A DNA stretch of 64,000 nt. Origin: Methanoregula sp. (GTDB taxonomy: Archaea; Halobacteriota; Methanomicrobia; Methanomicrobiales; Methanospirillaceae). The notes under the pieces are model-generated. The model worked only from the letters and a program-made list of their open reading frames with translations, was not told where the DNA came from and ran no database searches. Numbering within the stretch: the first letter of the stretch is position 1; each line of letters begins with the position of its first letter. Where the stretch lies: positions 14,697 through 78,696 of the forward strand of contig NZ_JBAYLY010000010.1 in the NCBI RefSeq assembly GCF_041663825.1, in the 5' to 3' direction. Both the position numbers and the translations under genes were made by a program. This document shows, in pieces, positions 1 through 18,589 of this stretch.

Positions 1-1
1 T

Positions 2-130
2 CCCAACCTGAAAAAAATTATCTTAAACGAGGACTGGCCCGAACATGAATATCCGTTGCGCAAGGACTGGAAACCCGGGCCGGATACGTTCTATGGCGGG
101 ATAAAAGTGGAAAGATCGGAGGGGAGTTAG
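2..130 (+). CDS. 3' end of NuoC-like (MbhK-type) subunit of a group 4 membrane-bound [NiFe] hydrogenase (partial, 5' end outside window)
   Basis: Frame 2 reads ...NEDWPEHEYPLRKDWKPGPDTFYGG... and ends at TAG 128-130, abutting the next ATG (TAGATG). DWP..PLRKD resembles the C-terminal signature of 30-kDa/NuoC-family subunits. Confidence 0.6.
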   Translation, partial: PNLKKIILNEDWPEHEYPLRKDWKPGPDTFYGGIKVERSEGS

Positions 131-1312
131 ATGCCCGAAGTCGTTATACCTATCGGACCCCAGCACCCGGCACTCAAGGAACCCGTGAATTTCCGGATTA
201 TTGCCGACGGGGAAAAGATCGTTCGCCTCGAACTTGAACTGTCCTATACCCACCGGGGGATCGAGAAGGCGGCCGAACAGCGGAACTTCATCCGGGTCCT
301 CCCGCTGCTGGAGCGGGTCTGCGGTATATGCTCGCATTCCCATGCGACGGTCTTTGCCAAAGGGATCGAGGAGATCATGCAGCTGGAAGTCCCCCCGCGA
401 GCGCAATATATCCGCACCATCATTGCCGAACTGGAGCGGATGCACAGCCATCTCCTCTGGCTGGGTGTTGCAGCGCACGAGATCGGGTTCAATACCCTGT
501 TCATGTGGACGTGGCGCGACCGCGAGGCGGTGCAGGACACGCTTGAGGAAATGAGCGGGAACCGGGTGCATTATAACATGAACGAGATCGGCGGTGTCCG
601 GTGTGACCTGAACCCGGCACAGGTAAATGCTGCCCTGTCCCGCCTGCCCTCCCTTGAGGAACGGATAAAAAAATACGTGGACATGGTAAACGACGAAGAG
701 ACCCTGTTGCTCCGGTTCCGGGGTGTCGGCAGGATGAGCAAAGAGGAGGCACTGAAATATGGGGCGGTCGGGCCGACGGCACGTGCAAGCGGTGTAGATT
801 ATGATGTACGCAGGGACGACCCGTATCTCGCCTACGCAGAGGTGCCCTGGAATGTCGTGACGGATACCGAGGGGGACGTGTATGGCAGAACACGTGTCCG
901 TATCGGGGAACTGCGGGAGAGCGTGCAGATTGTCAGGTACTGCCTGGAAAATATCCCGGCAGGACCGATCCGGGTTGATGCGCCAAAGAATGCGCCAAAA
1001 GGCGAGATCCTCTCGCGGTATGAAGCACCACGGGGGGAGCTGGCCCACTACATCCGGACGAACGGGACGGATAAGGTGGAGCGGGTTGATATCCGCACGC
1101 CGACTCTCGCGAACTGGACCTCGGTGGCAATGTGCCTTGTCAACCAGAACATCGCGGATATACCGGTAATTGTTGCCGCGATCGACCCCTGCCTCTCGTG
1201 CACATCACGGCTGACGGTCACTAACCGGCAGAACCGGCCGGGTGTTGCGGTGGTCCGGGCTGCACCGAACGGGAGGAGTCTTCCCGGTAGTGAGGGTGAA
1301 GAGAAACTATGA
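131..1312 (+). CDS. mbhL: [NiFe] hydrogenase large subunit, group 4 energy-converting type (NuoD-like)
   Basis: 393 aa. Has HRGIEK, an N-terminal Ni-binding CGICSHSH motif and a C-terminal DPCLSCTSR motif followed by a 33-aa tail. Gene order NuoC-like / large / NuoH-like / NuoI-like matches mbhK-L-M-N. Confidence 0.88.
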   Translation: MPEVVIPIGPQHPALKEPVNFRIIADGEKIVRLELELSYTHRGIEKAAEQRNFIRVLPLLERVCGICSHSHATVFAKGIEEIMQLEVPPRAQYIRTIIAELERMHSHLLWLGVAAHEIGFNTLFMWTWRDREAVQDTLEEMSGNRVHYNMNEIGGVRCDLNPAQVNAALSRLPSLEERIKKYVDMVNDEETLLLRFRGVGRMSKEEALKYGAVGPTARASGVDYDVRRDDPYLAYAEVPWNVVTDTEGDVYGRTRVRIGELRESVQIVRYCLENIPAGPIRVDAPKNAPKGEILSRYEAPRGELAHYIRTNGTDKVERVDIRTPTLANWTSVAMCLVNQNIADIPVIVAAIDPCLSCTSRLTVTNRQNRPGVAVVRAAPNGRSLPGSEGEEKL

Positions 1313-2283
1313 CCGATCCCGTGTTTATCCTTCTCTATATCGTCCTGTTCCCAGGATTCATCTTCCTGTTTGTTTACTCCCTGTTCCTGTCGTTTTTAGA
1401 CCGGAAGATCGTGGCCCGGATGCAGAACCGGGTCGGGCCGCCGTTCTACCAGCCGTTTGCAGACCTGGTAAAGATGCTGGCTAAAGAGGTGATCGACCCT
1501 GACGGGGTGGACCGGGCGCTGTTCGACGCGATACCCCTTGTCGCTCTCGCGGCGGTCATGACCGCGTTCCTCTACGTCCCGGTAACGGGATACAGCCCGC
1601 TTGCATTCCCGGGGGATCTTGTCGTCGTCCTCTACCTCATGCTTATCCCGACCTTCGCGCTCTTCCTTCTCGGCTGGCTCTCCCGCAATATCTTTTCCAC
1701 CATTGGTGGGATCCGGGCAGCGACGCAGATGTTTATTTACGAGGTGCCGTTCTTCCTTGCCCTCCTTGCGCCCGCCATCATGGCCGGCACCTGGTCGATA
1801 TCAGGGATCGTGGCCTGGCAGCAGCACAACACCTGGCTCGTGTTCTTCCAGCCGATCGGCTTTGTTGTTGCCCTGATCTGTCTCCAGGCAAAACTGGAGA
1901 GGACCCCGTTCGATATTCCCGAAGCGGAAACGGAGATCGTTGCCGGGCCCCTGACAGAGTTGACCGGGCGCAGGCTCGCCTTCATTCATCTGACGACCGA
2001 ACTATCGCTGGTGGTCGGCAGTGCCCTGATTGCCGCCCTGTTCCTTGGCGGCCCGATGATCCCGTGGACCCTTTCCCCATCGTGGCTGAACGAAGTTGCC
2101 GGTTTCTGCGTGTTCCTCGTAAAGACCCTCGCCGTGCTCCTGATACTCTCGTCGATCAAGGTAGCAACCGGGCGTATCCGTATCGACCAGCTCAACGATA
2201 TCGGCTGGAAATACATCGCCAGTGCAGCGTTAGTCCAGGTGGGGATGGTGCTTGTCATCAACTATCTCTGGGTGACCCTATGA
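1309..2283 (+). CDS. mbhM: Hydrogenase integral membrane subunit, NuoH/HycD/EchB-like
   Basis: 324-aa polytopic hydrophobic protein. Contains RKIVARMQNRVGPP and ERTPFDIPEAETEIVAG (NuoH-type motifs). Its start overlaps the mbhL stop (ATGA). Confidence 0.8.
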   Translation: MTDPVFILLYIVLFPGFIFLFVYSLFLSFLDRKIVARMQNRVGPPFYQPFADLVKMLAKEVIDPDGVDRALFDAIPLVALAAVMTAFLYVPVTGYSPLAFPGDLVVVLYLMLIPTFALFLLGWLSRNIFSTIGGIRAATQMFIYEVPFFLALLAPAIMAGTWSISGIVAWQQHNTWLVFFQPIGFVVALICLQAKLERTPFDIPEAETEIVAGPLTELTGRRLAFIHLTTELSLVVGSALIAALFLGGPMIPWTLSPSWLNEVAGFCVFLVKTLAVLLILSSIKVATGRIRIDQLNDIGWKYIASAALVQVGMVLVINYLWVTL

Positions 2284-2639
2284 GTGTCCTTTCGGAGATG
2301 ATCAAAAACCTCCTCTCCCGGCCGGTGACGATCCTCTATCCCCTGGAGCAGGTGCCGATACCGGTAACGTTTCGCGGGAGAGTGGCGATCACCGATGAGA
2401 AATGCATCGGGTGCTCGAAGTGCTCTCTTGTCTGCCCGGCACAGGTTATCACCATGATCGACGGCCCGAGGGAGGTTGAGTTCAAGGGAAAGAACCTTGC
2501 ACGGAAGAAACGGCCGCAGGTAAAACTGTACCAGTGCATCCGCTGCGGTCTCTGCGAGCGGCATTGTCCAACAGGCGCGATTCATCTTGAGCAGGTGCAC
2601 GGGGGTACGGGTACCGACCGGGAAGTTGTGGTAACATAA
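2280..2639 (+). CDS. mbhN: 2x[4Fe-4S] ferredoxin-like hydrogenase subunit (NuoI-like)
   Basis: Internal ATG at 2280 overlaps the mbhM stop (ATGA). Two CxxCxxCxxxCP motifs are present (CIGCSKCSLVCP, CIRCGLCERHCP). Confidence 0.85.
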   Translation: MSVLSEMIKNLLSRPVTILYPLEQVPIPVTFRGRVAITDEKCIGCSKCSLVCPAQVITMIDGPREVEFKGKNLARKKRPQVKLYQCIRCGLCERHCPTGAIHLEQVHGGTGTDREVVVT

Positions 2640-3133
2640 TGCAGAATAGAGAGCCTTTGACCGATACCCTTCAGCGCAGGGTAAAGGGTGCCTGCAGGCT
2701 GGCCGTTGTCGGTATCGGGGATGAACTCATCCCCCACGACCGGCTGGGAATGTTTGTGGCACGGGAGATCGAGCACCTGCATCTCCCGGGCGTGAAGGTT
2801 TTTTTTGCCGGTACGGTCCCGGAGAGTATCACCGGCCCCCTCCGCAGGTACCGGCCGGAGCATGTGCTTTTTCTCGACGCCGCCGACATGGGGGAACGGC
2901 CCGGAACGATCGCGGTTATCGGGCCGGGAGAGATCCGGGCCAGCCTGGTCTCGACGCACGTCCTCCCGCTTTCGGTTGTCATGGACTATGTTGAAGGGGA
3001 GATCGGGACAGATGTCACGCTGCTCGGGATCCAGCCGGATTTCACCCATCCGGAGAAGGACCTGTCAGAGGAAGACCGGGAATTCCTGAACCATAACCTG
3101 CGGGTAGTGTCTGATATTCTCCGGGAACGCTGA
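2639..3133 (+). CDS. hycI: Hydrogenase maturation endopeptidase (HycI/HybD family)
   Basis: 164 aa. LAVVGIGDELIPHDRLG near the N-terminus and FLDAADMG..PGT mid-protein are typical of this family. TAATG overlap with mbhN places it last in the hydrogenase operon. Confidence 0.82.
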   Translation: MQNREPLTDTLQRRVKGACRLAVVGIGDELIPHDRLGMFVAREIEHLHLPGVKVFFAGTVPESITGPLRRYRPEHVLFLDAADMGERPGTIAVIGPGEIRASLVSTHVLPLSVVMDYVEGEIGTDVTLLGIQPDFTHPEKDLSEEDREFLNHNLRVVSDILRER

Positions 3134-3194
3134 TGTACCCGGTGGTGCTCCCGGCCCCACCGCGATGCACCCTTGCTGCCCCAATCCCTGCTTT

Positions 3195-3230
3195 CATTTA
3201 CTTTAACTTTTAAGTAAATAACAAAGTAAA
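3195..3230. promoter_or_regulatory. AT-rich palindrome plus direct repeat upstream of the wHTH gene (candidate operator/promoter)
   Basis: ATTTACTT (3195-3202) and its exact reverse complement AAGTAAAT (3211-3218) are separated by 8 nt. A further AAGTAAAT copy lies at 3223-3230, about 20-55 nt upstream of the ATG at 3252. Confidence 0.4.
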
Positions 3231-3251
3231 TAACCCGGGCCGCTGATCATC

Positions 3252-3605
3252 ATGAAACAAACAAGGGAGGACCCCTCTATGCAGAATGATATCCTCTCGA
3301 TCCTGAATGAATCCGAAGGGCTCAACGCGAAAGTCTTCTCGCTTGTCCGCTTTAAACTGCTTGCGAGCCTTGCCGCTCTCGGGCAGGACGGGGCAACCTA
3401 CCGCGAGCTCAAAGCGGCGCTCGACATCAATGACGGCGTGCTGTTTGCGAATCTCAACGTCTTAAAAGACATGGGCTATCTTACTTCAGGGAAGATCACG
3501 TCCGAGGGAAAAGAACTCGAACTCTATACGATCACGCCCGAAGGACAGGATGAATGGAAGAGAACACGGACCTGGCTGTGCCGGTTCCTCCGCTGCGGAG
3601 TATAA
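3252..3605 (+). CDS. Winged-helix transcriptional regulator (HTH_34/ArsR-like)
   Basis: 117 aa. RFKLLASLAALGQDGATYRELKAALDINDGVLFANLNVLKDMGYL is a typical wHTH recognition helix plus wing. The start could instead be the ATG at 3279. Confidence 0.7.
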   Translation: MKQTREDPSMQNDILSILNESEGLNAKVFSLVRFKLLASLAALGQDGATYRELKAALDINDGVLFANLNVLKDMGYLTSGKITSEGKELELYTITPEGQDEWKRTRTWLCRFLRCGV

Positions 3606-3607
3606 CG

Positions 3608-4147
3608 ATGGAAAAATACCAGAAAGTAATAGCCTTCTTTAAGGAACTGGGTTTTCAGTTCGACATTTCCCGGTTCGACGACCGGCTGATCGCACAGAAA
3701 CTGGTCTGCCTGCTGGAACTCAAAGGTATAGACCTCGGGTATTCGTGCAGCCTGTATGTCCGCGGCCCGTACTCTCCGGACCTGACCCAGGACCTGTACG
3801 CATTCCCCGCCGAGTTTGCGGCCCTGGTCTCCGGCTCACGGCTGACCCCACAGGAGAAGGAGACGGCAGGCGAACTCGGCCGGATCTTCGGCCTCAAGCC
3901 TGTCTCTCTTGAAGTCGGGGCGACGTACGGCTATTATACCCTGCGGCAGGGAAGCGACCCGCTCGAAGCGGTCCGGCAGGTAAAACGGCTCAAGCCGTTC
4001 TATTCCGAGGCGCAGGTAGCACTAGGGGTATCGAAGGCAAAGCAGTTCCTCTTTACCCCGACAGAAAAGGATCTCGAAGCCTTAAAAGAGGAGACCGGGA
4101 TCTGGCAGCGGGCATCGCTCACGTCACGGGAGTACCGGGGCGAATGA
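3608..4147 (+). CDS. YwgA / DUF4065 (Panacea)-like protein, candidate antitoxin for the downstream MazF
   Basis: 179 aa, starting at an internal ATG 2 nt after the wHTH stop. DRLIAQKLVCLLELKGIDLGYSCSLYVRGPYSPDLTQDLY resembles the KLQKLxY...GPYS.EL core of YwgA/SocA-like proteins (recalled from memory). Its stop overlaps the mazF start (ATGA). Confidence 0.5.
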   Translation: MEKYQKVIAFFKELGFQFDISRFDDRLIAQKLVCLLELKGIDLGYSCSLYVRGPYSPDLTQDLYAFPAEFAALVSGSRLTPQEKETAGELGRIFGLKPVSLEVGATYGYYTLRQGSDPLEAVRQVKRLKPFYSEAQVALGVSKAKQFLFTPTEKDLEALKEETGIWQRASLTSREYRGE

Positions 4148-4470
4148 AGAACGGGGATATCTGGCTCGTGGATCTTTCCGATGCAAAAGGGCACGAGCAG
4201 CGGGGCGAACGACCGGCAATCGTGGTCGGGGGAGCAAACGGTCTTGTCCTTGTCGTCCCGCTCACGAGCAACACCGGCAGTGCCCGGTTCTCCCACACCC
4301 TCCCGATCTCCCCGGATACGCATAACGGTCTCGATGTGGAGAGTGTCGCCCTTGTTTTCCAGATTGTCTCGCTCGACCGGGAGCGGTTCCAGCACCGGAT
4401 CGGTACGGTGGGGGAACAGCACCGGCTCGCGATTGTGGCGCTGATCAGGAATTTGATGGGGATAGAGTAA
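4144..4470 (+). CDS. mazF: MazF/PemK-family endoribonuclease toxin
   Basis: 108 aa. GDIWLVDLSDAKGHEQRGERPAIVV and VVPLTSN are hallmark PemK/MazF motifs. Confidence 0.85.
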   Translation: MKNGDIWLVDLSDAKGHEQRGERPAIVVGGANGLVLVVPLTSNTGSARFSHTLPISPDTHNGLDVESVALVFQIVSLDRERFQHRIGTVGEQHRLAIVALIRNLMGIE

Positions 4471-4675
4471 ATTTGCCCGGATAAACCGGTTTTCCCAATC
4501 AAGTGCCTCGTGATGTAGTATCCGTATCCCGAGGTAAGATGATGAATGGGCGGAATCTACACGGAGATGGTCGCTGATCTGAAGAAGAAAGAACCGGCGC
4601 CGGCGGCTGCGGAAGGGACTGCACAACTAGAACAAAAAAGGAATAATCTTTCACGTTTGTTAAAAAGTTTGACAT

Positions 4676-6838
4676 TTATTGCGTTTGTTTAGTTTTCTTT
4701 TGTTTTTCAAGGTATGCCACCAAAAATTTATCGATAACCTCCTGTTGGTATTTGGATAAGTTTGAAAAAGCCATTTTATTCTCGTATATTTCTTTAATTC
4801 TGCAATTAATAAGGGAACAATCAACAAATTTTTCAAGGTCAGTTATATTGAAGGAGACGTTAATATTGTGATCATTAGCAGTTACATGGTATTCTACAAT
4901 CGCGAATTCTACGAGAATTTTTATTAACTCATTATCATTATTGGATAATTTTCGAACCCATTTACCACATACTTCTTTATCCGTATCCCAGTTATACCAA
5001 GAAAAAAGTATGATCTTTAAATTGGGACTTTTCAATAATTCATTTGAGTCTGCAAATTTATGTAATTTCAAGATCAGTAATTGTTTAAGATCTTCAATAT
5101 GCTCATTTGTGAGCGTATTTTTTTCTTTATTATTGTCGTTTTCGGTTGCAGCTCTTCGAATATCATGGACTATTGAATAGAATGTAGATGTAGAATTTAT
5201 GACAGTTTTCATTATTTCGTACCGTTCTTGTTCATTTAATCTTGAAAGCAACTGTTTTCGCAAAAATTGACATTCATCAAAAACGGTTATTGAATTTGCA
5301 TCTTGAGAATATTTATCGTGAAGAATCAGCAACGCATCTTGCAGGTCAAACAGTTCGGGTAATATTATTTTGACATTTTTTAAAGGAATATCATTTTCGG
5401 CATAATCGTTCAAGCGGGACAAAATATAATTTACTTTTCGACCCCCCATTTTATCTTTTGATGCCATTTCTAGCAGTTTTGATTTAAATTTTGTCTTATC
5501 CCCCGTCAAATCTAGGAGTTGCGCAATCTCATTATGGGGAATTCGATAATCGGGAATTGTCATCCAGAAATATGTTGGAAATATCTCTGTTATGCAAATA
5601 CGCAAATCTCGTCTCAATAGTCTCCAATCAGTACTAACATGTCTATTCAAATTCTCGCAGTACGCTGGAAAGAGTAGGGAGGATATCTGATCAACAGCAT
5701 GTTTTTTTGTTTTGGAATGGCTCAAAAAAATTTCATAAAAATTAGAATTATATCTAGGCTCTCTATCAGTTATCTTTCCAAATCCCGCAAATGCTAAAGG
5801 GTTTTCCCGAATTATTGCATATGTATCTGGTTGAAATATCCTTAATGATTCTATGGCAATGAAATCTATGGGGTTCACTTCACTATGGACTGAGGGGTAT
5901 GTAACAGAAATTGAATTAACAAATCTAATAATGTCTCTTGGAGTGTCGATTAGTTCTGAGATCCCCTCATCAAAAATTTTAATCCAATACGGGTCTTTGA
6001 AGAAATCATCATTGTATGATAAAAACAATTCTTCTAATCTTCTAGATAATAACTTTTTAATTTGAGATCTTTCTGGATATGGAACATCGAATGATGCTTG
6101 AATAATTTTTTCAAGATATTCCTCTCCAGATATATTCTCGCTTTCTTGAAGAATTTGTGTAACAATTTTTTTATCGAATGCTAAAAGAAAAACAACATTG
6201 GGAAAATCTGCGACAGTTTTAATTACTTGAAATAACTGTCGCATTTCTTCGGGATTTAAGCGATCAATATCATCGATTATTACCAAAATTTTCTTGTCCT
6301 GCGATAATTCCTTTGTAATCTCCTCTTTTAATTCTTCAACGCTTTTTTGGCCTGGATCAAATTGCTTTTTTATGTGCTCTACGCTATCTGTATATCCCTT
6401 ATTTATGGACTCATGAATCGCTTTAGGTATAATAATTGAGGAGAATGCAAGAAGATATTCTCCAAATAATTCTGTAATTTTTTCAGCGTTTTTTAGATTT
6501 TGGCTAATCCCCTTCCCAAAATGCATGAATAACTGTCGAATTAAATCATCTCTTCCTGAAAACCACCAAGGATTGAATTCAATGATTATAGGTTTTAAAT
6601 CTTCAGGCTGTTGGTTGAGATAATATTTTACATAATTTAAAATTGTGGACTTTCCTGAACCCCATTCCCCATTAATTGAAATAACAAATCCATGTGGATT
6701 AAACATATTCTGGATACCATTCGCCAAATGTCGAGCGAAGGGTCCATAATATAATTGATCATCTTTTGTAGGATCGTTTTTTGGGATATCACAAAGTATC
6801 GAAAAATGAGGATCTGAGGGCATCGTAATAAAATGCAC
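4676..6838 (-). CDS. KAP-family P-loop NTPase
   Basis: 720 aa. Walker A GEWGSGKST, then NPWWF, Walker B KILVIIDDIDRL and FLLAFD. The gene is strikingly AT-rich (about 30% G+C by eye) compared with its neighbours. Confidence 0.88.
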   Translation of the reverse strand: MHFITMPSDPHFSILCDIPKNDPTKDDQLYYGPFARHLANGIQNMFNPHGFVISINGEWGSGKSTILNYVKYYLNQQPEDLKPIIIEFNPWWFSGRDDLIRQLFMHFGKGISQNLKNAEKITELFGEYLLAFSSIIIPKAIHESINKGYTDSVEHIKKQFDPGQKSVEELKEEITKELSQDKKILVIIDDIDRLNPEEMRQLFQVIKTVADFPNVVFLLAFDKKIVTQILQESENISGEEYLEKIIQASFDVPYPERSQIKKLLSRRLEELFLSYNDDFFKDPYWIKIFDEGISELIDTPRDIIRFVNSISVTYPSVHSEVNPIDFIAIESLRIFQPDTYAIIRENPLAFAGFGKITDREPRYNSNFYEIFLSHSKTKKHAVDQISSLLFPAYCENLNRHVSTDWRLLRRDLRICITEIFPTYFWMTIPDYRIPHNEIAQLLDLTGDKTKFKSKLLEMASKDKMGGRKVNYILSRLNDYAENDIPLKNVKIILPELFDLQDALLILHDKYSQDANSITVFDECQFLRKQLLSRLNEQERYEIMKTVINSTSTFYSIVHDIRRAATENDNNKEKNTLTNEHIEDLKQLLILKLHKFADSNELLKSPNLKIILFSWYNWDTDKEVCGKWVRKLSNNDNELIKILVEFAIVEYHVTANDHNINVSFNITDLEKFVDCSLINCRIKEIYENKMAFSNLSKYQQEVIDKFLVAYLEKQKKTKQTQ

Positions 6839-6928
6839 TTTAGTATCTTAATTGAAATATGTTTTTGATCAGGTGTTATGATCCCAAAGATCACAATTGT
6901 TTTTTGAATTCCTGCCCCCGATAGAAAA

Positions 6929-7253
6929 GAGGGGTGGGTACCCCCCACCCGCCCCGGCACATGGGTGGGGGGGTGGCCCCCACTTACGCGGACAAAGGGG
7001 GAGGGGGGTAGGGGATCACCCCCCTCCACCGGATTTGGGACGCCCGCCATTTTTGCACGGGAAATGCAGGGTCGTTCGCGTGGAGGCTCCGACGGAGGAT
7101 TTTTGCCTGCGGTCGTTTTTTGGTGCGTGGTCGCGGGCCGGACCGGGCCAAAGGGGGGAGGGGGTACCCCCCTGCTGCTCCGGAACAAGGGTGGGGGGGT
7201 GATCCCCTGCTTGAGCGACAGAAGGGGAGGGGGGTGATCCCCTTACCCCCCAC
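6929..7253 (+). repeat. Composite G-tract/palindrome element, copy 1 (two ~100-bp units flanking a ~120-bp core)
   Basis: Each unit carries three modules in order: GGGGGTACCCCC, GGGTGGGGGGGTGRYCCCC and GGGGAGGGGGGTAGGGGATCACCCCCC (the last is shortened to GGGGAGGGGGGTGATCCCC in the second unit). The core shares TTCGCGTGGA and GGGCCGG.CCGGG with copy 2 at 28492-28820. Confidence 0.8.
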
Positions 7254-7345
7254 TTTTTTTAAAGAATGGAACAAAAACGGGCAGCCCCCCATCACAACCA
7301 GCGTAAAGTTATTGATAAATAGGTACTTTCACCCAATTTTGTTGT

Positions 7346-7912
7346 ATGAAAGAGAATGGGGGGAACATACTAAAGATCGAAAATATCGTCGCCTCCGGGT
7401 CGATTGCAGAGTCCGTCGACCTGGAATTACTTTCCGACAAAATACCGGGCTGCGTGCTCAATACAAAGAGGTTCCCCGGTGCGGTCTACCATATGCAGAA
7501 CCCGAAATCTGCTGCCCTCATTTTTGCATCCGGCAAGATCGTCATTACCGGACTCCACCGGCCGGAAGAATCAAAATCAGTTCTCCAAAATCTGATAAAT
7601 ACCCTCAAAGAAGCAGGAATTACCGTTCTGGATAACCCCCGGGTCAAAGTCACCAATATGGTCTGTTCCCATGATCTCGGGTACCCCTGCAACCTGAACA
7701 GGATCATGGTCGGATTAATGGACAGCGAGAATATCGAATATGAGCCGGAAGTCTTTCCGGGACTTGTCTGCCGGATTTCTGACCCCAAGGTAGTATTTCT
7801 TCTTTTCACCACGGGAAAACTCATTATAACCGGCGGAACGAATATGGCAGATATTGAAAAAGGACTTGTGATTCTTAAGGAAAAACTCAGTATTGTCGAC
7901 CACAAAATCTGA
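7346..7912 (+). CDS. tbp: TATA-box binding protein paralog
   Basis: 188 aa with two TBP repeats: LKIENIVASGS...FPGAVYHM..PKSAALIFASGKIVITG and NIEYEPEVFPGLVCRISDPKVVFLLFTTGKLIITGG. Confidence 0.88.
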   Translation: MKENGGNILKIENIVASGSIAESVDLELLSDKIPGCVLNTKRFPGAVYHMQNPKSAALIFASGKIVITGLHRPEESKSVLQNLINTLKEAGITVLDNPRVKVTNMVCSHDLGYPCNLNRIMVGLMDSENIEYEPEVFPGLVCRISDPKVVFLLFTTGKLIITGGTNMADIEKGLVILKEKLSIVDHKI

Positions 7913-8186
7913 AAAATCAAAAAATTTTACGTGGTAGAGAGCCTGAAAGCGGGAAAGCCTCCGGAAACGTCGCGTAAAAAGCCCATAAACCCCCCGCACG
8001 GTATGAAACGAGCGGACAGGCGGACGAGTGCGCCAATCCCTCCCGCATCAACTGCAAAAAAAGCAGAATTTCAAAGAGGATTTCAATTAACTGGCAAAAA
8101 TGCAGGATTTGCGGCAATACCTACGACGTAAAAATTAATCGCAGATCGTAAGAAAAAGGATTTTTTGAAATCATCTGAAATATTTT

Positions 8187-8753
8187 TTAATCGTTATTGT
8201 CAGCAATACAGAGTTTTCTCTTAAAAACCCCGACTCCCCGTTTAACATCGTCCATATTCGTCCCCCCTGTAATAATGGTCTTTCCCGAGGAGAAGAGCAG
8301 GAATACGAGTTTTGGGTCAGAAATCCGGCAGACAAGTCCCGGAAAGACTTCCGGTTCATATTCGATATTCTCGCTGTCCATTAATGTGATCATAATCCTG
8401 TTCAGGTTGCACGGGCTCCCGAGATTATAGGAGCAGACAATATTTTTGATGGCGACCTGCGGGTTATCCTCACAGGGTATTTCTGCACGTCTGAAGTCCT
8501 GTAAAAGATTTTGTAACGCTACCGGGATATCTTCAGGAGTAATGAGGCCGGTAATCACGATCCTGCCCGATGCAAAAATGAGGGCAGCGGATTTCGGGTT
8601 TTGCATGTGATAGACCGCACCCGGGAACCTCTTTTTGTTGAGTACACAGCCCGGTATTTTGTCGGAAGTGAGTTCCAGGTCGATAGCATCTGCAATCGAT
8701 CCGGAAACGACGACATTTTCGATTTTTAATGAGTGGAGTTCACTCTCTTTCAT
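8187..8753 (-). CDS. tbp: TATA-box binding protein paralog (convergent with 7346-7912)
   Basis: 188 aa. Colinear with the other copy, 130/188 identical residues by manual count, with the same repeat motifs. Confidence 0.88.
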   Translation of the reverse strand: MKESELHSLKIENVVVSGSIADAIDLELTSDKIPGCVLNKKRFPGAVYHMQNPKSAALIFASGRIVITGLITPEDIPVALQNLLQDFRRAEIPCEDNPQVAIKNIVCSYNLGSPCNLNRIMITLMDSENIEYEPEVFPGLVCRISDPKLVFLLFSSGKTIITGGTNMDDVKRGVGVFKRKLCIADNND

Positions 8754-8889
8754 AATCTAAAAATGGGACAGAAGACCCTATTAATAAATAACTCATCCGG
8801 GGTGAAAACCGGGAAATAACTCCAAGGGGAGGAGTTTTTTATTTCCGGGCAACCCCCGGTTCCACCAAAATACCCGATCCATCTCCCAC

Positions 8890-10143
8890 TTATTTCTGGG
8901 CAACCTGTGCCAGGGTATCGTGAGCTGCCACGGACGGGTTGTGCTTCTCCCTGATGAGCGCAACAAGATACGGCACCGCGAGCAGGAGCGCGATGCATCC
9001 AAATGCAAGGAACATATTACTGTATGTTGCCACGAGTGCAATGACGGGCAATACCGCAAGTGCGGAAGCAAACTGGCCGATGTTCAAGGACACCGAGAAC
9101 CCGCCCATCGCCCGCCCGAGAAATTGTCGTGGCGTGATTGCAGCAATCCAGGTTAAGATCGTCGGCATCAGGAGCCCTTCGCCAATACCGACCAGGACCA
9201 CGGCGACCCCTACGAGGACAAGCGACGTGGCAAACCCGAGAATGCACAGGCCCAGGCCAAAGGAGAGAAGAGTCACGGTGAGGATCGTGTACCGGTGGAA
9301 TCTCCAGGCAATTCTCCCGTAAAAGATCCCGAGGATTGCCGAGGCACAGCCCCCGATCCCGAGGAATATCCCTGCGGTAAGCGCGGTGTTTTCTCCCATG
9401 ATCCGTGCGGCATCCATATGGGCAATCAGGAAGGGGAACTTCGTCGGCATCAAAAAGAACAGCAGGTTCCCCATAAAGAGGGTGATATATGCCAGGAGAA
9501 GGGGAGTGGCCGGGAATTTTTCATCGGACTCCGCCTTTCTCTCACCGGGTGCTGCCCTGATTTCCTCGCATTTGCGGGCGGGCTCTCTCATCGTTAAGAG
9601 AACGCCGGCGAGAATGACAATCCCCAGGAGGTAGATGAGGAACGCTGCACGCCAGGAAATACCGGCGAGTAATCCACCGCTCACTTCAAGGATCAGTACC
9701 CCGACACCCATGGCCGCTGCCTGGTAACCGAGAATCCTCGCCCGGGTCAGCCCGTCATAATAACAGACAATCAGGGCAGATGTCGTGCAGATGATACCGG
9801 CAATACCGACCCCGAGGAAGAACCTGCCCACGAGTATTGCGGGAATTGAGTTGAGATAATATCCCGAACTTCCTGCAATGGTAAAGACCGCAACGGAGAT
9901 GGCAAGGACCCTGATTTTGCCGATCTTATCCGAAAGGATCCCGAGGAATAAGCCCGTGATGGCAATGGCAAGCGCGGGGAGCGTAACAATTAAGGAGATG
10001 CTTGCATCTGATGCGTCGGGAAATGCTGCGCTGATTAACGGCAGAGCCGGCGCGACTGCTGCTCCTCCCATGAGGATCATCATGGCAGCAAGCATGAGGA
10101 AAAGAAATGTCCATTTTGATGGTTTGAACTGTGCCGAAGTCAT
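8890..10143 (-). CDS. MFS transporter
   Basis: 417 aa, about 12 hydrophobic segments in two six-helix halves joined by a charged central loop (REPARKCEEIRAAPGERK). Confidence 0.78.
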   Translation of the reverse strand: MTSAQFKPSKWTFLFLMLAAMMILMGGAAVAPALPLISAAFPDASDASISLIVTLPALAIAITGLFLGILSDKIGKIRVLAISVAVFTIAGSSGYYLNSIPAILVGRFFLGVGIAGIICTTSALIVCYYDGLTRARILGYQAAAMGVGVLILEVSGGLLAGISWRAAFLIYLLGIVILAGVLLTMREPARKCEEIRAAPGERKAESDEKFPATPLLLAYITLFMGNLLFFLMPTKFPFLIAHMDAARIMGENTALTAGIFLGIGGCASAILGIFYGRIAWRFHRYTILTVTLLSFGLGLCILGFATSLVLVGVAVVLVGIGEGLLMPTILTWIAAITPRQFLGRAMGGFSVSLNIGQFASALAVLPVIALVATYSNMFLAFGCIALLLAVPYLVALIREKHNPSVAAHDTLAQVAQK

Positions 10144-10206
10144 GTCCTATTAAATCGTTAAGGACAGAATATTAAGAAAGTGCTCCTGAAAAGAGTAGCT
10201 GATGTT

Positions 10207-10977
10207 ATGATTGATGATTCGTTACTTTCGCAGCTCAAAGGCATCGGGATGAGTGAATACGAGGCGAAGGTATACGTGATTCTCTCAGCTCTGCGGGTGG
10301 CAAGTGCCCGGGAAATCCACGAACAGACAAAGATCCCCCGGGGCAGGATCTATGAAACGCTTAACTCGCTCCTGGAGAGAGGGTTTATTGTCTCTTCGGG
10401 GAAGGCGCCGGTCCGGTACTCGCCGGTCGATGTCACCGCGACGTTTGAGCGGCTGAAACGCGAATCCGTGGCGTCTCTTGATGGATTGTATGAGCGTGTG
10501 AAAACCCTCGAAACCGAGACACCGGCCCCGCTCATGCAGGGATATAAACTGTATACCGAATGGACCCGGGATAACCAGATCCGGATGATGCTCAGGAGGG
10601 CGAAATCAGAGGTTATCCTGCTCTGCAATGATGAAGCATTCCTCACCCGGTATGGCAGCGATATTTCACGTGCGGCAAAACGGGTCGTCGTGTACCTTAT
10701 TGTCGGGAGAAAAGAACTTGCGGAGTTTGCGCCGGTAAAATGCTATGTTGGAGGGAACGATATGGAGTCCTCCCTCATTCATCCCGAGGTGGGAGAACAC
10801 ATCGGGCTCTCGATGAAATTGTTATTGCTGGCCGACCGCCGGGAGTCCCTTTCGGTCATGGAAGAGAACGGTAAACTGACGGCGATCTTCATATCCCCTG
10901 ATATTTTCGCCGGCTACCTGTCGCGAAAATTTGTGCAGGAGATAGAGCCGGTTGAGCGGTCGCGGAAGAGAACCTGA
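10207..10977 (+). CDS. TrmB-family transcriptional regulator
   Basis: GMSEYEAKVYVILSALRVASAREIHEQTKIPRGRIYETLNSLLERGFI is the TrmB N-terminal wHTH. The track ORF starts at GTG 10180; ATG 10207 is preferred. Confidence 0.78.
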   Translation: MIDDSLLSQLKGIGMSEYEAKVYVILSALRVASAREIHEQTKIPRGRIYETLNSLLERGFIVSSGKAPVRYSPVDVTATFERLKRESVASLDGLYERVKTLETETPAPLMQGYKLYTEWTRDNQIRMMLRRAKSEVILLCNDEAFLTRYGSDISRAAKRVVVYLIVGRKELAEFAPVKCYVGGNDMESSLIHPEVGEHIGLSMKLLLLADRRESLSVMEENGKLTAIFISPDIFAGYLSRKFVQEIEPVERSRKRT

Positions 10978-11120
10978 AAGGGACAGCTACCGGATACCCG
11001 GAAAACTATACTGTTTTGAATTTTTTATCGTAGTCGGGTCCCGAAGATCGCAGGTTTTTCTCGCGCGGCCGGCTCCGGCAGATGGCCGTACCACGTACCC
11101 TCTTCAGGTTCCCGCAGACC

Positions 11121-12269
11121 TCAGGCCTGCTGCCCGGCCGGGCCGGCAAACCGCGTTTTCATCAGGTACGCCATCAGGGCAACGAGTATCCCGAGGATGC
11201 CGGCCACCACAAAGACCGCGTCGAGGCCGAAGAAGACCAGGACTATCCCGAGAACAATGGGGGCAGCGCTCTGGCCCACGTATTTCATGCAGCTGTGGAT
11301 CGCGATCACCCCGCCCCGGGTCGTCGGGGGCGAGAGCTGGATGAGCTGCACGTCAATCGCGGTCTGGGCAAGGATCAGCCCCACGCCAAAGACCAGCAGC
11401 AGCAGGACGACCGCCGCAACCGATTGCGCACAGGCTAAAAACAGAAGCGAGAGTCCGACGGCGATAAATCCCGCAGCAATCACCACCGGCAGGGAATGTT
11501 TCCCGGTCAGCGGCTTAACCTGCGGTGCAAAGAGGATGCACGTGATCCCCGGGACCGCGAGCATCAGGCCCGATGCCCCCGACGCGTACCCGAACGTTCC
11601 CTTGAGCATGAAGGGCACGTAGATCATCATCGCAAACAACAGGAAAAAGATCGAAAAGCCCATGAAGACCGTTGCGAGGATCGGCAGGTCTTTGAGGCAT
11701 TTGAGCGCCCCGCCCATCCCCTCGTGGTGCACAACCGTGGCCTGGTCCCGGGTCTCTGGGAGAAACAGGATCACAAGCACCGCAAACGGCAGGGAGAGTG
11801 CAAAGAAGAGGAAGGCATAGTTCCATCCGAACAGGGCGAGCCCTCCCCCGATCACCGGGGCAAATACCGACCCAAGGGCAAACGTGATGCTGATCTTGCT
11901 CATCGCCGCCACCCGGTCAAGGCCGGTGTAGACGTCCCCGATCACGAGCATGGCAAGCGTTGTCATCCCCGCAACGCCGATCCCCTGCATGAACCGTAAG
12001 ACAAGAAGAGACGCGAAATCAGCGACAAAAAAACTCACGAGCCCGGTGAGGCCGTAGATTAAAAGGCAGGGAATCAGGATCCGTTTCCGGTTCACGCGGT
12101 CGGTGAAATGCCCGATCACCAGGGTGAAAAACGCTGTTGAGATCGTAAACACGGACATCAAGAGCGCGACATTCTGCGCTGTTGTGTGCAGGGGACCTAC
12201 CATCTCCGGCAGTACCGGTGCAAGGAGCGCCCCCCCGGCCATGGAAAAAAATGCCACGATGCAGAGCAT
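11121..12269 (-). CDS. MFS transporter
   Basis: 382 aa polytopic protein. DRVNRKRILI is the MFS loop 2-3 motif (D-R-x-x-R-K/R). Confidence 0.78.
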   Translation of the reverse strand: MLCIVAFFSMAGGALLAPVLPEMVGPLHTTAQNVALLMSVFTISTAFFTLVIGHFTDRVNRKRILIPCLLIYGLTGLVSFFVADFASLLVLRFMQGIGVAGMTTLAMLVIGDVYTGLDRVAAMSKISITFALGSVFAPVIGGGLALFGWNYAFLFFALSLPFAVLVILFLPETRDQATVVHHEGMGGALKCLKDLPILATVFMGFSIFFLLFAMMIYVPFMLKGTFGYASGASGLMLAVPGITCILFAPQVKPLTGKHSLPVVIAAGFIAVGLSLLFLACAQSVAAVVLLLLVFGVGLILAQTAIDVQLIQLSPPTTRGGVIAIHSCMKYVGQSAAPIVLGIVLVFFGLDAVFVVAGILGILVALMAYLMKTRFAGPAGQQA

Positions 12270-12464
12270 CAGGAGATCGGTTTTATTAAATTCCGTGATT
12301 CGCCTCTTTACCTTTCCCGTATATGGAGTACCGTTTTGATCCTGTCCTCAAATAGACATCGCGCTCCTCTGATCTGGGTGTGCGGCCCCGGGAAAAAGGA
12401 CAACGAACCGGGACCCGAGACCCTCCCGTCAGGACCGGTTGGCGGTACTCCCGGTAAAAAAGAA

Positions 12465-13076
12465 TTAACTGTCCGCCCGCTCGGGATAATACATCTCATT
12501 CGTCAGCTTTTCACGCGCCTTTGGCAGGGAATCGATCTCATACTGGCTCACGATATGCTCGTTTATGGTCTCCCCGGTCTCCTTGTCGATGGACGCGGGC
12601 ACCCGCGTATATTCCCGGAAGATCTGGGAGCCGCCAGAAGAGGCCGGGATGGAAACCCGGTATTTGTTGTCCCCAATCTTTTGCCAGGTACCGGACATCT
12701 TGAGCTGAGAAACAATCCTGAAGCTCGATCCGGAATTTATCGGTACGCCAAAGGTATAGGTCACGCTCCCGTCCGATAAGAATACGAAATCGTAGGCCGC
12801 CCATGGCATTTCTGAGGTAAACGTGGGGTATTCCCGAACCCATCGGCGGAGAATCGGATCGGATTCCAGCGTTGCGGTGGTCGTTGGCGTCTGTGTTGGG
12901 CTTGTCGTTATTGCTGTCGCAGGGGTGATCAGGATCTGTGTGGTCACCGGTGCAGATGTGACAGGCACGGTGGTTGTGGGCACGGCTGCGGAACTACCGG
13001 ACGAACTCGTACATCCCGCAGCCAGAAGAACTGCGATGGTAATGATCGTGAGAGAAAAAAGAGTGATTTTTCTCAT
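12465..13076 (-). CDS. Secreted/lipobox-like protein with Thr-rich linker, unknown function
   Basis: 203 aa. Signal peptide MRKITLFSLTIITIAVLLAAGC followed by an S/T/P-rich stretch. Confidence 0.55.
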   Translation of the reverse strand: MRKITLFSLTIITIAVLLAAGCTSSSGSSAAVPTTTVPVTSAPVTTQILITPATAITTSPTQTPTTTATLESDPILRRWVREYPTFTSEMPWAAYDFVFLSDGSVTYTFGVPINSGSSFRIVSQLKMSGTWQKIGDNKYRVSIPASSGGSQIFREYTRVPASIDKETGETINEHIVSQYEIDSLPKAREKLTNEMYYPERADS

Positions 13077-13255
13077 AGATCACCAGTTATATCGTGATCC
13101 TATAATCCTTCTCTTTTGCCTCCTTAAGGGAGCCCCCGCTCTCCCCTCACTTTTTTACAGCGTTTTTGGACAGGGTCGACACATGCAAGGAACCAAATAA
13201 AAGCCCCTGCCCCAACCATTAAACTGTCAAACGGTGCAGGGATGAGTAGACATCC

Positions 13256-13426
13256 ATGTCACCTGTCATCCGGGCCGACTGCCCCTGCCCGAAAACAACC
13301 TGCAGCCGCCACACGCTCTGCGACGAATGCGAGGCGTTCCGCGTAGCACGGGGGAAAGTGCCGTTCTGCCGGCAGCAGAAGGTCTCGTTCCTTGGCAGGA
13401 TCCGGAAGATGCTGGGCCTGAGGTGA
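13256..13426 (+). CDS. Small Cys-rich protein (56 aa, DUF6485-like pattern), absent from the ORF track because it is shorter than 60 aa
   Basis: MSPVIRADCPCPKTTCSRHTLCDECEAFRVARGKVPFCRQQKVSFLGRIRKMLGLR*. Six Cys are spaced C-x-C-x4-C-x5-C-x2-C-x12-C, and third codon positions are GC-rich like host genes. Confidence 0.5.
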   Translation: MSPVIRADCPCPKTTCSRHTLCDECEAFRVARGKVPFCRQQKVSFLGRIRKMLGLR

Positions 13427-13544
13427 ACGTTTCCACGATCCGGTTGGCCCGGGGATCCGGCTTTTTTACGAATGTTCATCATGTCATCGATCATAAAAAA
13501 AATGCTAAAGTCCGGTTGGGTAACACCGGGCGGAGTGTGATACC

Positions 13545-14876
13545 GTGTGGGCCCTCGATATAATAACCCTCTTTCTGATCCTCTTCCTCGTCAATGTCGT
13601 CCTCACGCTGATGCTCTTTACCTTCTGGAGAACCCAGAAGACCTATGACGGCTTCCGGATATGGATGCTTTCCCTGCTGGTCACGTCCTGCGGGTATTTC
13701 CTGTACCTGCTCTATGGATCCGTGCCCGTCTGGATCTCCTCAACCGGGGCAAATCTTTTGATCGTGCTCTCGGTCATGATGCGGCTTGACAGTACCGGGA
13801 AATATTTCCGGTCATGGGCGCTCCCTAAGATCGTGTACGGCATCCTGGTACCGGCCGGGCTCCTCTTGTTCTGGTTTATGATCGTGACCGATTCGGTGGT
13901 CGCCCGTGGCGTCATCGTAGGGTTACTCATTGTCCCCTGCTTTGTTGCGACATCCGTCATTGCGATACGGTCAAAGGAACCGGAGACCCGGTCGCTCAGG
14001 TACAGTTTCAGTACGGCACTTCTGGTCCTGGCGCTCCTCTGGACCGCGATAGTCATCAACGGGGTTACAACCCCCGGGAATCACTCGCTGGAAGGTCCGG
14101 ATCTCATCAATTCTGTCTTCTTTATCGTTACGATCCTCATGGACATCGTCCTCACGGCATCCTTCCTGATGCTTAATATGGCCCGGTCCCAGATCGAACT
14201 CCGAAAAAGCGAGGATGCACTCTCCCGGGCAAACAAAAAACTCACGATTCTCTCTTCAATAACCAGGCACGATATCAAGAACCAGCTCACGGCCCTCGCG
14301 TTATATCTCGAGCTTTCGAAAGACGAACTTAGTACCCATCCCGGCGCATCAGAGTATCTCAAAAAAGAGATGGCGATCGCTGAAATAATCGGGCTCCAGA
14401 TCGACTTTTCAAAGGCCTACGAGGATATGGGAACAACGGCACCGGTCTGGCAGAATATCAATGAAAGTATCCGGCGGGCTGTTGCGGCCCTGCCGATGCA
14501 GGCGGTAAGGGTGGAGGTTGACCGGTCTGACCTCGCACTGTATGCAGATCCCTTGTTCGAGAAGGTCTTCTATAACCTGATTGATAATGCCCTCAGGCAT
14601 GGCGGGAATACCCTTACGAAGATCCGCATCTCCTGCCATGAGACTGAAAAGGGGCTCGTCCTTATCTGTGAGGATGACGGTGCCGGGATTACCAGAGAGG
14701 ACAAAGATCACCTGTTTATGCAGGGCTGCGGGAAACATACCGGCCTCGGGCTCTTCCTCTCCCGCGAGATCCTCTCGATCACCGGCATTACCATCGCGGA
14801 AACCAGCGAACCGGGGAAAGGGGCCCGGTTCGAGATGAACGTGCCGAAAGGGGCGTACCGGTTCGGACAGTCATGA
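13545..14876 (+). CDS. Membrane sensor histidine kinase (multi-TM sensor domain + HisKA-like + HATPase_c)
   Basis: About 7 TM segments. H-box SSITRHDIKNQLTAL, N-box YNLIDNALRHG, then DDGAGI and GLGLFLSREI. GTG start. Confidence 0.85.
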   Translation: MWALDIITLFLILFLVNVVLTLMLFTFWRTQKTYDGFRIWMLSLLVTSCGYFLYLLYGSVPVWISSTGANLLIVLSVMMRLDSTGKYFRSWALPKIVYGILVPAGLLLFWFMIVTDSVVARGVIVGLLIVPCFVATSVIAIRSKEPETRSLRYSFSTALLVLALLWTAIVINGVTTPGNHSLEGPDLINSVFFIVTILMDIVLTASFLMLNMARSQIELRKSEDALSRANKKLTILSSITRHDIKNQLTALALYLELSKDELSTHPGASEYLKKEMAIAEIIGLQIDFSKAYEDMGTTAPVWQNINESIRRAVAALPMQAVRVEVDRSDLALYADPLFEKVFYNLIDNALRHGGNTLTKIRISCHETEKGLVLICEDDGAGITREDKDHLFMQGCGKHTGLGLFLSREILSITGITIAETSEPGKGARFEMNVPKGAYRFGQS

Positions 14877-14946
14877 TACCGGCAGAAAACAAAAAAAACC
14901 CCGGATTTCCCGCAAAGCAGGTATCGATCTCCCGGTGACGTGTACC

Positions 14947-15759
14947 ATGGACCCAAAAGAACACATCCACATCATCAGTGCAGGAGAAAAGATCCACGAG
15001 GCCTATCCTGCGGCACTCAGGGACCTGCCGACGATCACCCATACCATCATTTTTGCCGAAAAAGAGGTCTATACCAACTCGGCCCGGGACGATACCAAGA
15101 AACGGATGTGGAAGTGCGCCATCCGCGACGCGATTGAGGCGGTGAACGCCCTCTCCATCTCCAAAAATATACCCTGTTCCCTGGTCCGTATCGATGCGGC
15201 AACGTTTGATGCGATCCGTGACCCGGTGCTCGGGATCTACAGCGATCACCCGGATGCACGGTATTCGTTTGATATATCCGCCGGGTCAAAACGCCTCTCG
15301 CTTGGACTCTTCTCAATGTCGCTCTGGGTGGAGGGCGATTCCTATTACGCGTTTGGGGATTCCCCGATCCGGCGGGTTCCAGTACCGGTATTTCCCGTAA
15401 AGAACCTTGCAGCAAACCCGTATTATCTTGTGATCCTCACCATCCTCTTCCGGGGCCAGGAGACCGGGAAGCAGACAAGGACGCTCGTCCCAAAAGAGAC
15501 CCTTTTTAACGAGACAAAAACCTGGCAGATCCCGGCGAGCGCTTTTAGTTCGGGCACCGACCGGCCCGAACTGTCACCGGCCGTGTTCTCCCGGTTAGTA
15601 TCGACGCTGGTGGGCTGGAACCTTATTTGTGAGGAGTCCGATCCGGGGAATGACCGGGAGAAACTCTATTGCCTCACCCCGGATGGCGAACTCGCGATAT
15701 ACGTGTACCTGGCGCGCCTGAAAAAGCGGAATCCCGGGAGTGCACCGGGTCTCACGTGA
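14947..15759 (+). CDS. Rossmann-like (Csa3/CARF-like) N-domain + C-terminal wHTH protein, putative ligand-responsive regulator
   Basis: 270 aa. HIHIISAGEK / HTIIFAEKE / FDISAGSKRLSLGLFSMSL resemble the strand-loop pattern of Csa3-type CARF domains. The C-terminal LSPAVFSRLVSTLVGWNLI...LYCLTPDGE looks like a wHTH. The function call is tentative. Confidence 0.5.
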   Translation: MDPKEHIHIISAGEKIHEAYPAALRDLPTITHTIIFAEKEVYTNSARDDTKKRMWKCAIRDAIEAVNALSISKNIPCSLVRIDAATFDAIRDPVLGIYSDHPDARYSFDISAGSKRLSLGLFSMSLWVEGDSYYAFGDSPIRRVPVPVFPVKNLAANPYYLVILTILFRGQETGKQTRTLVPKETLFNETKTWQIPASAFSSGTDRPELSPAVFSRLVSTLVGWNLICEESDPGNDREKLYCLTPDGELAIYVYLARLKKRNPGSAPGLT

Positions 15760-15782
15760 TTTGCCGCGAGAAAAACGAATCC

Positions 15783-16583: not shown

Positions 16584-16808
16584 GGAGCATCTCTTCTGTT
16601 CACTGGTTATGGATCGTCTTATTTGTTTCTGCCGGGTGTTATTACCCATCTCTCCAGTACCGGAACGTAACTGTGAGAAGGGCACGAAATTTTGTCGTCG
16701 GTAAAAAAGGGAGGGCTGACACCATGTCAAAAAAAGATGGGATGAGGTATCCCCCGATCCCCTCAAGGCCCCTTACGTGCTTGTGCAGGGCTCTAAACTA
16801 TGCCGTTT

Positions 16809-18535: not shown

Positions 18536-18589
18536 CATTCGGTCCTTTGGTATCTTTTTTCGGTCGAAAACATGTTTGCCGGATTTCTC

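Follow-up and report, generated by a model that had tools for sequence, protein, structure and literature searches.

The locus raises the question of why AT-rich genes in a methanogen chromosome stop at the edge of a short, G-rich repeat, and whether that repeat has a part in placing them there. The repeat, a non-coding element of about 330 nucleotides (nt), lies in a 64,000-nt stretch of DNA from Methanoregula sp. (contig NZ_JBAYLY010000010.1, positions 14,697 to 78,696), referred to here as the window; all coordinates are those of the whole window, and the relative loci fetched for comparison carry L-numbers (L034 and so on). The repeats are mosaic DNA elements specific to the Methanoregulaceae, inherited at fixed chromosomal sites, and the copies exchange sequence with one another. 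At the 5' edge of the G-rich strand, low-GC, mostly defence-type cassettes vary from genome to genome. This one edge of the element is the border of exchangeable foreign cassettes, polar and exact to the nucleotide, with no recombinase encoded locally in the annotated parts of the window. The most likely explanation is that the element marks, and probably creates, a polar hot spot for cassette insertion or replacement, acting in cis at the level of the DNA. Our confidence in this DNA-level recombination reading is a little short of even, and is lower for the mechanistic details.

Two full copies are present in the window, both with the G-rich strand on +: copy 1 at 6926-7253 and copy 2 at 28492-28821. 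Each is formed by a G/C-hairpin unit of ~100 nt, a core of ~120 nt and a second unit. The unit starts are exactly 226 nt apart in both copies, so the element is better described as about 1.5 periods of a 226-nt tandem repeat. The unit contains three short modules, each a G-run, a loop and a C-run: GGGGGTACCCCC, a plain 12-bp palindrome (an extended pairing of this module was suspected and then dropped), followed by GGGTGGGGGGGTGRYCCCC and then GGGGGGTAGGGGGATCACCCCCC. In unit a of copy 1 (6926-7030, nhmmer E=4.5e-23), the module 1 palindrome is located at 6931-6946, module 2 (GGGTGGGGGGGTGGCCCCC) at 6963-6981 and module 3 at 6997-7030. The core of copy 1, type A (7031-7151, + strand, E=3.9e-27), contains a box resembling an origin recognition box (ORB), TTGCACGGGAAATGCAGGGT at 7053-7072 (+); an inverted partner of this box is centred on TTCGCGTGGA (7075-7084), and the core also has a CTCCGACGGAG hairpin, several T-runs and, at its 3' end, GGGCCGGACCGGGCC. 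Unit b (7152-7260, +) has module 1 at 7160-7172, module 2 at 7189-7207 and module 3 at 7224-7251, the last inverted relative to module 3 of the other three units and followed by a T7 run (7254-7260) that is terminator-like on the + strand. In copy 2, unit a (28492-28596, +, E=9e-28) has its modules at 28498-28509, 28526-28544 and 28562-28592; the core, type B (28597-28714, +), contains the ORB-like box TTCCACGCGAAACACAGGAT at 28629-28648 (-), with TTCGCGTGGA inside it at 28638-28647, and unit b occupies 28715-28821 (+, E=1.6e-27). The two cores have TTTTTGCA, TTCGCGTGGA and GGGCCGG.CCGGG in common.

The initial annotation, made from the letters of the window, had proposed an undescribed, non-coding repeat family with this layout. 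Direct inspection bears out the sequence, coordinates and unit-core-unit arrangement of copies 1 and 2, the shared core motifs and the reverse-complement relation of module 3, the inverted form being that of unit 1b. It had missed the ORB-like boxes of the cores, the 226-nt tandem nature, the restriction to one family and the distant status of a third copy. The idea that the repeats arose from low-complexity G/C sequence by chance or as an artefact of assembly, for which only the look of the G-runs speaks, is refuted. GGGTGGGGGGGTGRYCCCC has four exact and six near matches in the window, all within the two elements, against 0.18 expected; GGGGGGTAGGGGATCACCCCCC has four against 0.01 and GGGGGTACCCCC four against 0.21, and within the window the module motifs are restricted to the elements. 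A JGI contig from a different sample aligns to window 4997-8479 without gaps and with 3 mismatches, which shows that the G-runs are not assembly noise, and more than 30 homologous copies are found in other genomes (genome loci and metagenome scan together).

The relation of element and cassette is clearest next to thiC. Between the thiC stop codon and copy 2 lies a low-GC cassette (27433-28491, GC 0.33) with an orphan open reading frame (ORF) at 27481-28386 (+). Of 80 metagenome loci that encode proteins closely related to the ThiC C-terminus, 13 have the element downstream of thiC, ten of these on the thiC strand. Three sites are empty (L092, L096, L099), and the thiC stop is followed by a 75-nt AT-rich spacer and then the element. 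Elsewhere the filling differs (the window, L034/L101, L113, L083 and L032, and the distant-type L118, L091, L102 and L112), with at least five kinds of 0.65-3.5 kb, mostly at GC 0.33-0.39. On the right, every filling ends at the first G-run of module 1. On the left, the junction shifts within ~50 nt of the thiC stop and changes the tail of ThiC. By blastn against the window, orthologues of copy 2 were found in L034 and L032; positions 1-5231 of L034 correspond to window 22192-27377 at 91% identity and 7676-8000 to window 32124-32448, with the element itself 87% identical.

Copy 1 adjoins a second such cassette (4640-6925, GC 0.33), which ends at the first G-run of the element and contains a KAP-family NTPase gene (4676-6838, -; 715 residues in the gene call of L081, with the start probably at the ATG at 6823). 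Orthologues of copy 1, 83-85% identical, were found by blastn in L047, L072, L011 and L021. At all these orthologous loci, of copy 1 and copy 2 alike, the element is retained and the adjoining DNA is different. Related cassettes (L034, L101) stand beside different element types, and one type, A3, stands beside an empty site or beside different cassettes; the element is therefore not carried along with the cassette. At one locus, close relatives have differing core types (A3 and B), and L011 is chimeric, from which it follows that copies at different sites exchange sequence.

The polarity was assessed over 26 copies with 500 nt on either side, with 616 windows from the same loci as background. 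GC of 0.40 or less was found on the 5' side of the G-rich strand in 13 of the 26 copies, compared with 4.2% of the background (binomial p=8e-12), and on the other side in 1 of 25. The claim of the initial annotation that the element edges AT-rich cassettes is thus supported both by these statistics and by the synteny, empty sites included. The cassette genes are mostly of the defence type: KAP NTPase, FRG domain, Eco57I/TaqI-type methylase, SIR2 with STAND NTPase, PLD-like nuclease, C39-like peptidase, a DUF2254 protein and orphans. No integrase or transposase is present among them. Pfam-annotated gene calls cover window 1-15022 and 19282-60576; the locus for the left part (L081) matches the window only to 12367, and 12368-19281 and 60577-64000 are the regions not annotated on the window sequence. 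Within the annotated parts no recombinase was found, in keeping with what had been noted from the sequence, and an integration or recombination hot spot, one of the options raised at that stage, is the reading that the evidence favours.

The main rival to a hot spot of this kind is a site-specific recombinase encoded elsewhere and acting in trans, with the element as its attachment site, like attI of integrons. The enzyme would use the 12-bp palindromes (GGGGG-TA-CCCCC, GGGGTGATCCCC) as core sites and insert circular cassettes at the first of them. The precision of the right junction, at or within module 1, fits such an enzyme; in L047 the break falls at the exact centre of the palindrome, with ...CCCTC before it and TACCCCCC after it. 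Palindromic sites would permit inversion as well as insertion, which fits the inverted modules and cores, and the 31-nt repeats around the Fic gene described below are also attachment-site-like. Against this, neither a second site nor a half-site is found at the far end of any cassette of the main family. The left-hand junctions are spread over tens of nucleotides and cut into the thiC tail, and module 1, in its left arm, follows cassette identity only imperfectly. With no recombinase in the annotated window parts or the cassettes either, we regard this explanation as unlikely. The likeness to integron attI/attC is nonetheless worth setting out: single-gene, mostly promoter-independent foreign cassettes stand beside a repeated hairpin-forming site, and the cassette content of one locus differs between strains. 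Unlike an integron, the element has no IntI and no R/L boxes (GTTRRRY), there is one site per cassette and no array, and, unlike attC, it stays while the cassettes change, with the cassette genes in either orientation.

The distribution of the family was obtained by scanning one genome per species with the 19-mer of module 2, which gave 73 loci, and applying a hidden Markov model (HMM) of the unit. The model matches 29 of the 73, and all 29 are from Methanoregula or from metagenome-assembled genomes (MAGs) of Methanoregulaceae; the bacterial loci are lone chance matches to the 19-mer. Archaeal genes surround the elements, among them two TBP genes, an Ech-type hydrogenase operon, thiC, cofH and PolD DP1. 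The family is confined to the Methanoregulaceae. One MAG has nine loci across eight contigs. A viral origin was considered and rejected, as none of seven IMG/VR matches to the 19-mer has the unit. The alignment comprises 19 full unit-core-unit composites, with extra copies from the metagenome scan. In L001, L016, L036, L058 and L062 the same modules are reordered and core segments are inverted or rearranged, L018 has a dense module array, and the distant relatives L091, L102, L112, L118 and L142 have simpler cores flanked by GGGGGTACCCCC palindromes. A literature search on Methanoregula repeats and islands, archaeal repetitive extragenic palindromes (REPs) and the module sequences found no description of such methanogen repeats. 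Parts of the element resemble known things (ORBs, the mosaics of REPs and bacterial interspersed mosaic elements (BIMEs), island anchors). What is new is the combination of ORB-like boxes within G/C-hairpin direct repeats and a one-sided, recombinase-free exchange of cassettes in an archaeon.

The mosaic build suggests a further explanation, a selfish or neutral repeat of the REP/BIME type, or resembling a MITE (a miniature transposable element with inverted repeats), spread by a transposase encoded elsewhere and gathering in permissive intergenic DNA beside genes gained recently. REP/BIME sequences are likewise extragenic, short, GC-rich imperfect palindromes (20-40 nt in REP/BIME, 12-30 nt for the modules of the element) in variable order and orientation, multi-copy, lineage-specific and sites of DNA insertion; they are known targets of IS110- and IS3-type insertions. 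Short GC-rich palindromes in dense arrays (L018, L001, L016) and several copies per genome agree with this, and in module 3 a hairpin comes after GTAG (GGTAGGGGG), the arrangement seen in GTAG-type REPs (PMC3733652). The element differs in being archaeal (the REP survey has no archaeal case), in its conserved, non-palindromic core of ~120 nt and in occurring in tens rather than hundreds of copies that are syntenic across species; a RAYT gene was not identified in the fetched loci, nor was a Y1 transposase among these loci, which are not whole genomes. The copies are orthologous across species and are not polymorphic insertions, and at thiC it is the cassette that varies and the element that stays. 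Conservation of the core is about that of the flanking genes. A MITE was rejected on the same ground of orthologous sites and because the units are direct rather than inverted, with no terminal inverted repeats and no target duplication in the flanks; the MITE-like mobility proposed at the outset does not hold. A selfish repeat is, on balance, improbable.

The behaviour of the modules points to DNA structure. Module 3 and the ~10-nt loop separating the two core boxes are found in either orientation, depending on the copy; such a flip-flop is the expected result of extrusion or template switching of inverted repeats in DNA. Several of the junctions with variable DNA coincide with the centre or edge of a hairpin, as in L047, in L110 (module 3) and in L035, where only one palindrome is left. 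The highest G4Hunter-type score in the window, 2.5, is found at 6983-7022 and 51124-51195, in line with the G-quadruplex (G4) potential that had been predicted from the G-runs; a complementary C-run follows each G-run, so hairpins compete with G4 and either structure is equally likely. Single sequences fold better than shuffled ones on both strands (z=-4.5 and -4.6), which G-runs with C-runs after them would lead one to expect.

That folding is the first argument for a small RNA gene or transcribed structure beside which islands integrate, as they do at tRNA genes. Copy 1 also has a terminator-like hairpin with a T-run at both ends (called by a sigma-70 promoter scan whose promoter output, meaningless for an archaeon, was not used), and a few compensatory variants (CTCC/GGAG, TCAC/GTGA, TTAT/GTAA) occur in the small hairpin that follows TTCGCGTGGA. 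Rfam gave no match at the gathering threshold, however, and E-value scans of both copies gave chance hairpin-type matches far below gathering scores. RNAalifold returned a covariation term of 0.04 for 18 composites and no consensus structure, with an energy of ~0, for 29 cores on both strands. Core segments are inverted relative to the units in some copies, and runs of T5-T9 on both strands would halt archaeal RNA polymerase inside the element. A tRNA/transfer-messenger RNA (tmRNA) scan of the window was negative. The structured RNA that the initial annotation had suggested was rejected on these results, and an RNA gene is very improbable. Protein coding was rejected as well: orthologous copies differ by 1- and 2-nt indels, and the ORFs across the element are artefacts of high GC. 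With tRNA/tmRNA island anchors and with defence hot spots flanked by core genes, the element has in common a short conserved landmark with variable, defence-rich, low-GC DNA on one side. It differs in that it is not an RNA gene by the tests run, its islands have no integrase and no duplicated att or 3' end, and the landmark is itself a dispersed repeat.

The core resembles archaeal ORBs. Its most conserved sequence, TTCGCGTGGA(A), reads TTCCACGCGAAAC on the other strand, and the upstream box reads TTGCACGGGAAAT-GCA-GGGT. In the archaeal mini-ORB, TTCC and GAA are perfectly conserved and four bases apart (PMC1904270). Both core boxes fit this mini-ORB, with a short G-string after it; their pattern is TCCA-N3-GGAAAC, then N1-3, then a G-run. 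The window and the loci were searched with the ORB regular expressions of Ori-Finder 2 for Methanomicrobia and Halobacteriaceae (PMC4164010, Table 1). In the window, the Halobacteriaceae expression matches at 28629 (-) with 18/20, a joint best match, and at 7053 (+) with 17/20. The cores, which make up 0.29% of the 1.27 Mb searched, contain 14 of the 27 Halobacteriaceae-expression matches and 7 of the 21 Methanomicrobia-expression matches. Reversed or column-shuffled motifs give 0-1 matches in the cores, and in 1000 column shuffles the mean best score stayed below the observed one throughout. A distant-type element has an 18/20 match, TCCACGGGAAACAGAGGGGT. A haloarchaeal ORB-like element ends in GGGGTGGGGGGGT (PMC3528665), which is essentially module 2, and the enhancer of Haloarcula hispanica oriC1 is the inverted repeat GGGGAGGGGG/CCCCCTCCCC (PMC3936714), which corresponds to the arms of module 3; the extended G-string GGGTGGGGGGGTG of haloarchaeal origins is also present in the element. 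A literature search found no Methanoregula ORB. We take the likeness as a statistically solid resemblance of candidate boxes, not as evidence of binding. A parS likeness of TGTTTCGCGTGGAATC (12/16) was dismissed by eye; the sequence is not palindromic and occurs in type B cores only.

A replication or chromatin role could on these grounds be primary, with dispersed predicted Orc1/Cdc6 sites and the cassettes as a by-product; the element would then be a dormant or plasmid-derived origin, a site of initiator titration like Haloarcula hispanica oriC2D, or a boundary element. Besides the enrichment of ORB matches in the cores, the G-strings and the G-rich inverted repeat resemble essential or enhancing parts of haloarchaeal oriC1 (PMC3936714, PMC3528665), an ORB-rich region that is not an origin is known in haloarchaea (PMC3936714), and the syntenic conservation suggests a benefit to the host. 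The core boxes are inverted, but they lie only ~9 nt apart with no AT-rich unwinding element between them as an origin would have, and the core has a GC of ~57-60%. Unlike ORB clusters and origins, the element has no adjacent orc1/cdc6, its boxes are embedded in 100-nt direct repeats, and its binding of Orc1/Cdc6 is putative. At least nine copies in one genome are far above the known numbers of archaeal origins, and the one-sided pattern of cassettes is unexplained by a replication role alone. We consider a primary role in replication somewhat less likely than a recombinase in trans.

For the polar hot spot, we favour the following course of events. The hairpin- or G4-prone modules would stall replication forks or be cut as hairpins, possibly while held by an Orc1/Cdc6-type ORB-binding protein. 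The break would be repaired with incoming DNA, the repeat serving as a protected or homologous anchor on one side and giving a precise junction; at the opposite end, resection and illegitimate joining would leave a variable one. Such repeat-anchored repair would explain why one junction is precise and the other ragged, and also why no recombinase is seen, since none would need to be carried by the cassette. A bolder proposal is that the Methanoregulaceae possess dispersed, ORB-like, hairpin-rich 'landing pads', a cassette-capture system analogous to integrons but mechanistically different, in which an initiator-type protein or the DNA structure, and not an integrase borne by the cassette or encoded next to it, would direct the polar insertion and exchange of defence genes at set places in the chromosome. 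This we consider doubtful, on a par with the recombinase in trans.

Several points weigh against a hot spot created by the element. Breakage, fork stalling and protein binding are predicted, and we infer them from the sequence. The ORB matches are imperfect (15-18/20); no orc1/cdc6 was found in the Pfam-annotated parts of window 1-60576 (1-12367 and 19282-60576 on the window sequence), and tblastn with an approximate Orc1 query, a weak test, found no match in the fetched loci. Sharp junctions could also arise simply because thiC and the element, as functional neighbours, are both under purifying selection. In the polarity sample, the orthologous loci are not fully independent, although their cassettes differ, and 13 of the 26 copies have no low-GC DNA on the left. 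In L053 it is on the right that the 500 nt fall to a GC of 0.40 or less, and in L048 and L064 DNA of lower GC (0.38-0.45) is located further to the right. Finally, the 31-nt repeats around the Fic gene fit a site-specific recombinase better than break repair.

The acquisition and turnover of defence genes in archaea are poorly understood, and the archaeal routes known to us depend on integrases aimed at tRNA genes. Here a short repeat predicts the position of foreign genes, polar and nucleotide-exact on one side, across a family of environmentally important methanogens, with no recombinase seen. If the ORB likeness does reflect binding of an Orc1/Cdc6-type protein, replication initiation or fork barriers would be tied to horizontal gene acquisition. 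In practice, the repeat can serve as a simple marker for variable defence cassettes in genomes and metagenomes of Methanoregulaceae.

A third site, at 50853-51190 (+), had been listed in the initial annotation as a variant copy at 50858-51190. It does share short motifs with the main family, but the overlap is limited to CGCGTGGA, TTTTTCTGC, GGGGGGAGGGGGGTGA and an ORB-like box; neither the unit HMM nor the core HMM matches at 50858-51190, and the site has its own 222-nt period. It is at best a distant relative. Hairpins of the form GACCGATC..GATCGGTC are located at 50864-50894, 50965-50995 and 51081-51118. The G-modules lie at 50919-50938, 51141-51160 and 51173-51189. There are also two ORB-like boxes, both on +, one at 51043-51062 with the ORB expression match TTCAGTGGAAACACAGGTCA at 51043 and the other at 51064-51083. 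The adjoining Fic gene (49203-50576) has a GC of 0.50, compared with 0.55 for the window. Of the three low-GC neighbours claimed at first, the KAP NTPase gene and the orphan ORF (both GC 0.32) therefore stand and Fic does not. The Fic gene is bracketed by direct repeats of 31 nt at 49086-49116 (+) and 50864-50894, identical at 28 of 31 positions and each a GACCGATC..GATCGGTC hairpin; the right one is the first hairpin of the distant relative. From their sequence, the pair looks like the attL/attR of a cassette insertion. A search for other strains at the Fic locus returned the same contig only. The cumulative GC skew climbs from position 1 to ~52 kb and then drops, the turn lying just right of the distant relative; this turn at ~51000-52000 may be noise or an effect of gene orientation.

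Variable DNA is also present on the right side of the elements, but with normal GC. Between copy 1 and the conserved right flank lie two TBP genes, an MFS gene and a TrmB gene. The TBP paralogues, at 7346-7912 (+) and 8187-8753 (-), form a convergent inverted repeat (7332-7917/8182-8767, 77-82% complementary) directly right of copy 1, and the pair is missing at the corresponding position in L047, L072 and L011. To the right of copy 2, a block of 2.97 kb lies between 100-nt direct repeats at 29179-29278 and 32150-32249 (79% identical) and encodes an AAA_14/DUF4143 ATPase and NTP_transf_2/HEPN pairs. The second 100-nt repeat is located ~60 nt past the element in L083 and L110, which identifies the block as an insertion. 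Left of the KAP cassette, between it and the hydrogenase operon, a PemK/MazF-type toxin gene and a PadR/HTH_34 gene at 4144-4470 indicate that the hot spot also houses accessory genes of normal GC.

A two-gene module encoding an HTH protein of ~150 residues and a protein of ~300-365 residues (MTRVSE... start) adjoins the element at two different loci. It is located at 2338-3899 in L021, 5633-7191 in L011 (reverse-complement coordinates) and 6333-7666 in L101; it lies right of the element in the first two and left of it in L101, reads away from the element in all three and may be a mobile cassette common to different element copies. The ENA contig k141_378228 is 99.8% identical to window 1-12367 and then only 83-85%, with a difference of 2.5 kb versus 0.36 kb at the switch. 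To judge by this change in identity, window ~12367 is the probable edge of a recent recombination tract between diverged lineages, a tract that would take in the KAP cassette and copy 1. Window 33474-35000 contains at least nine coding tandem repeats of 141 nt, 60-80% identical and unrelated to the element, which are rich in G.Y...D.....R.Q.F motifs (NHL or beta-propeller-like).

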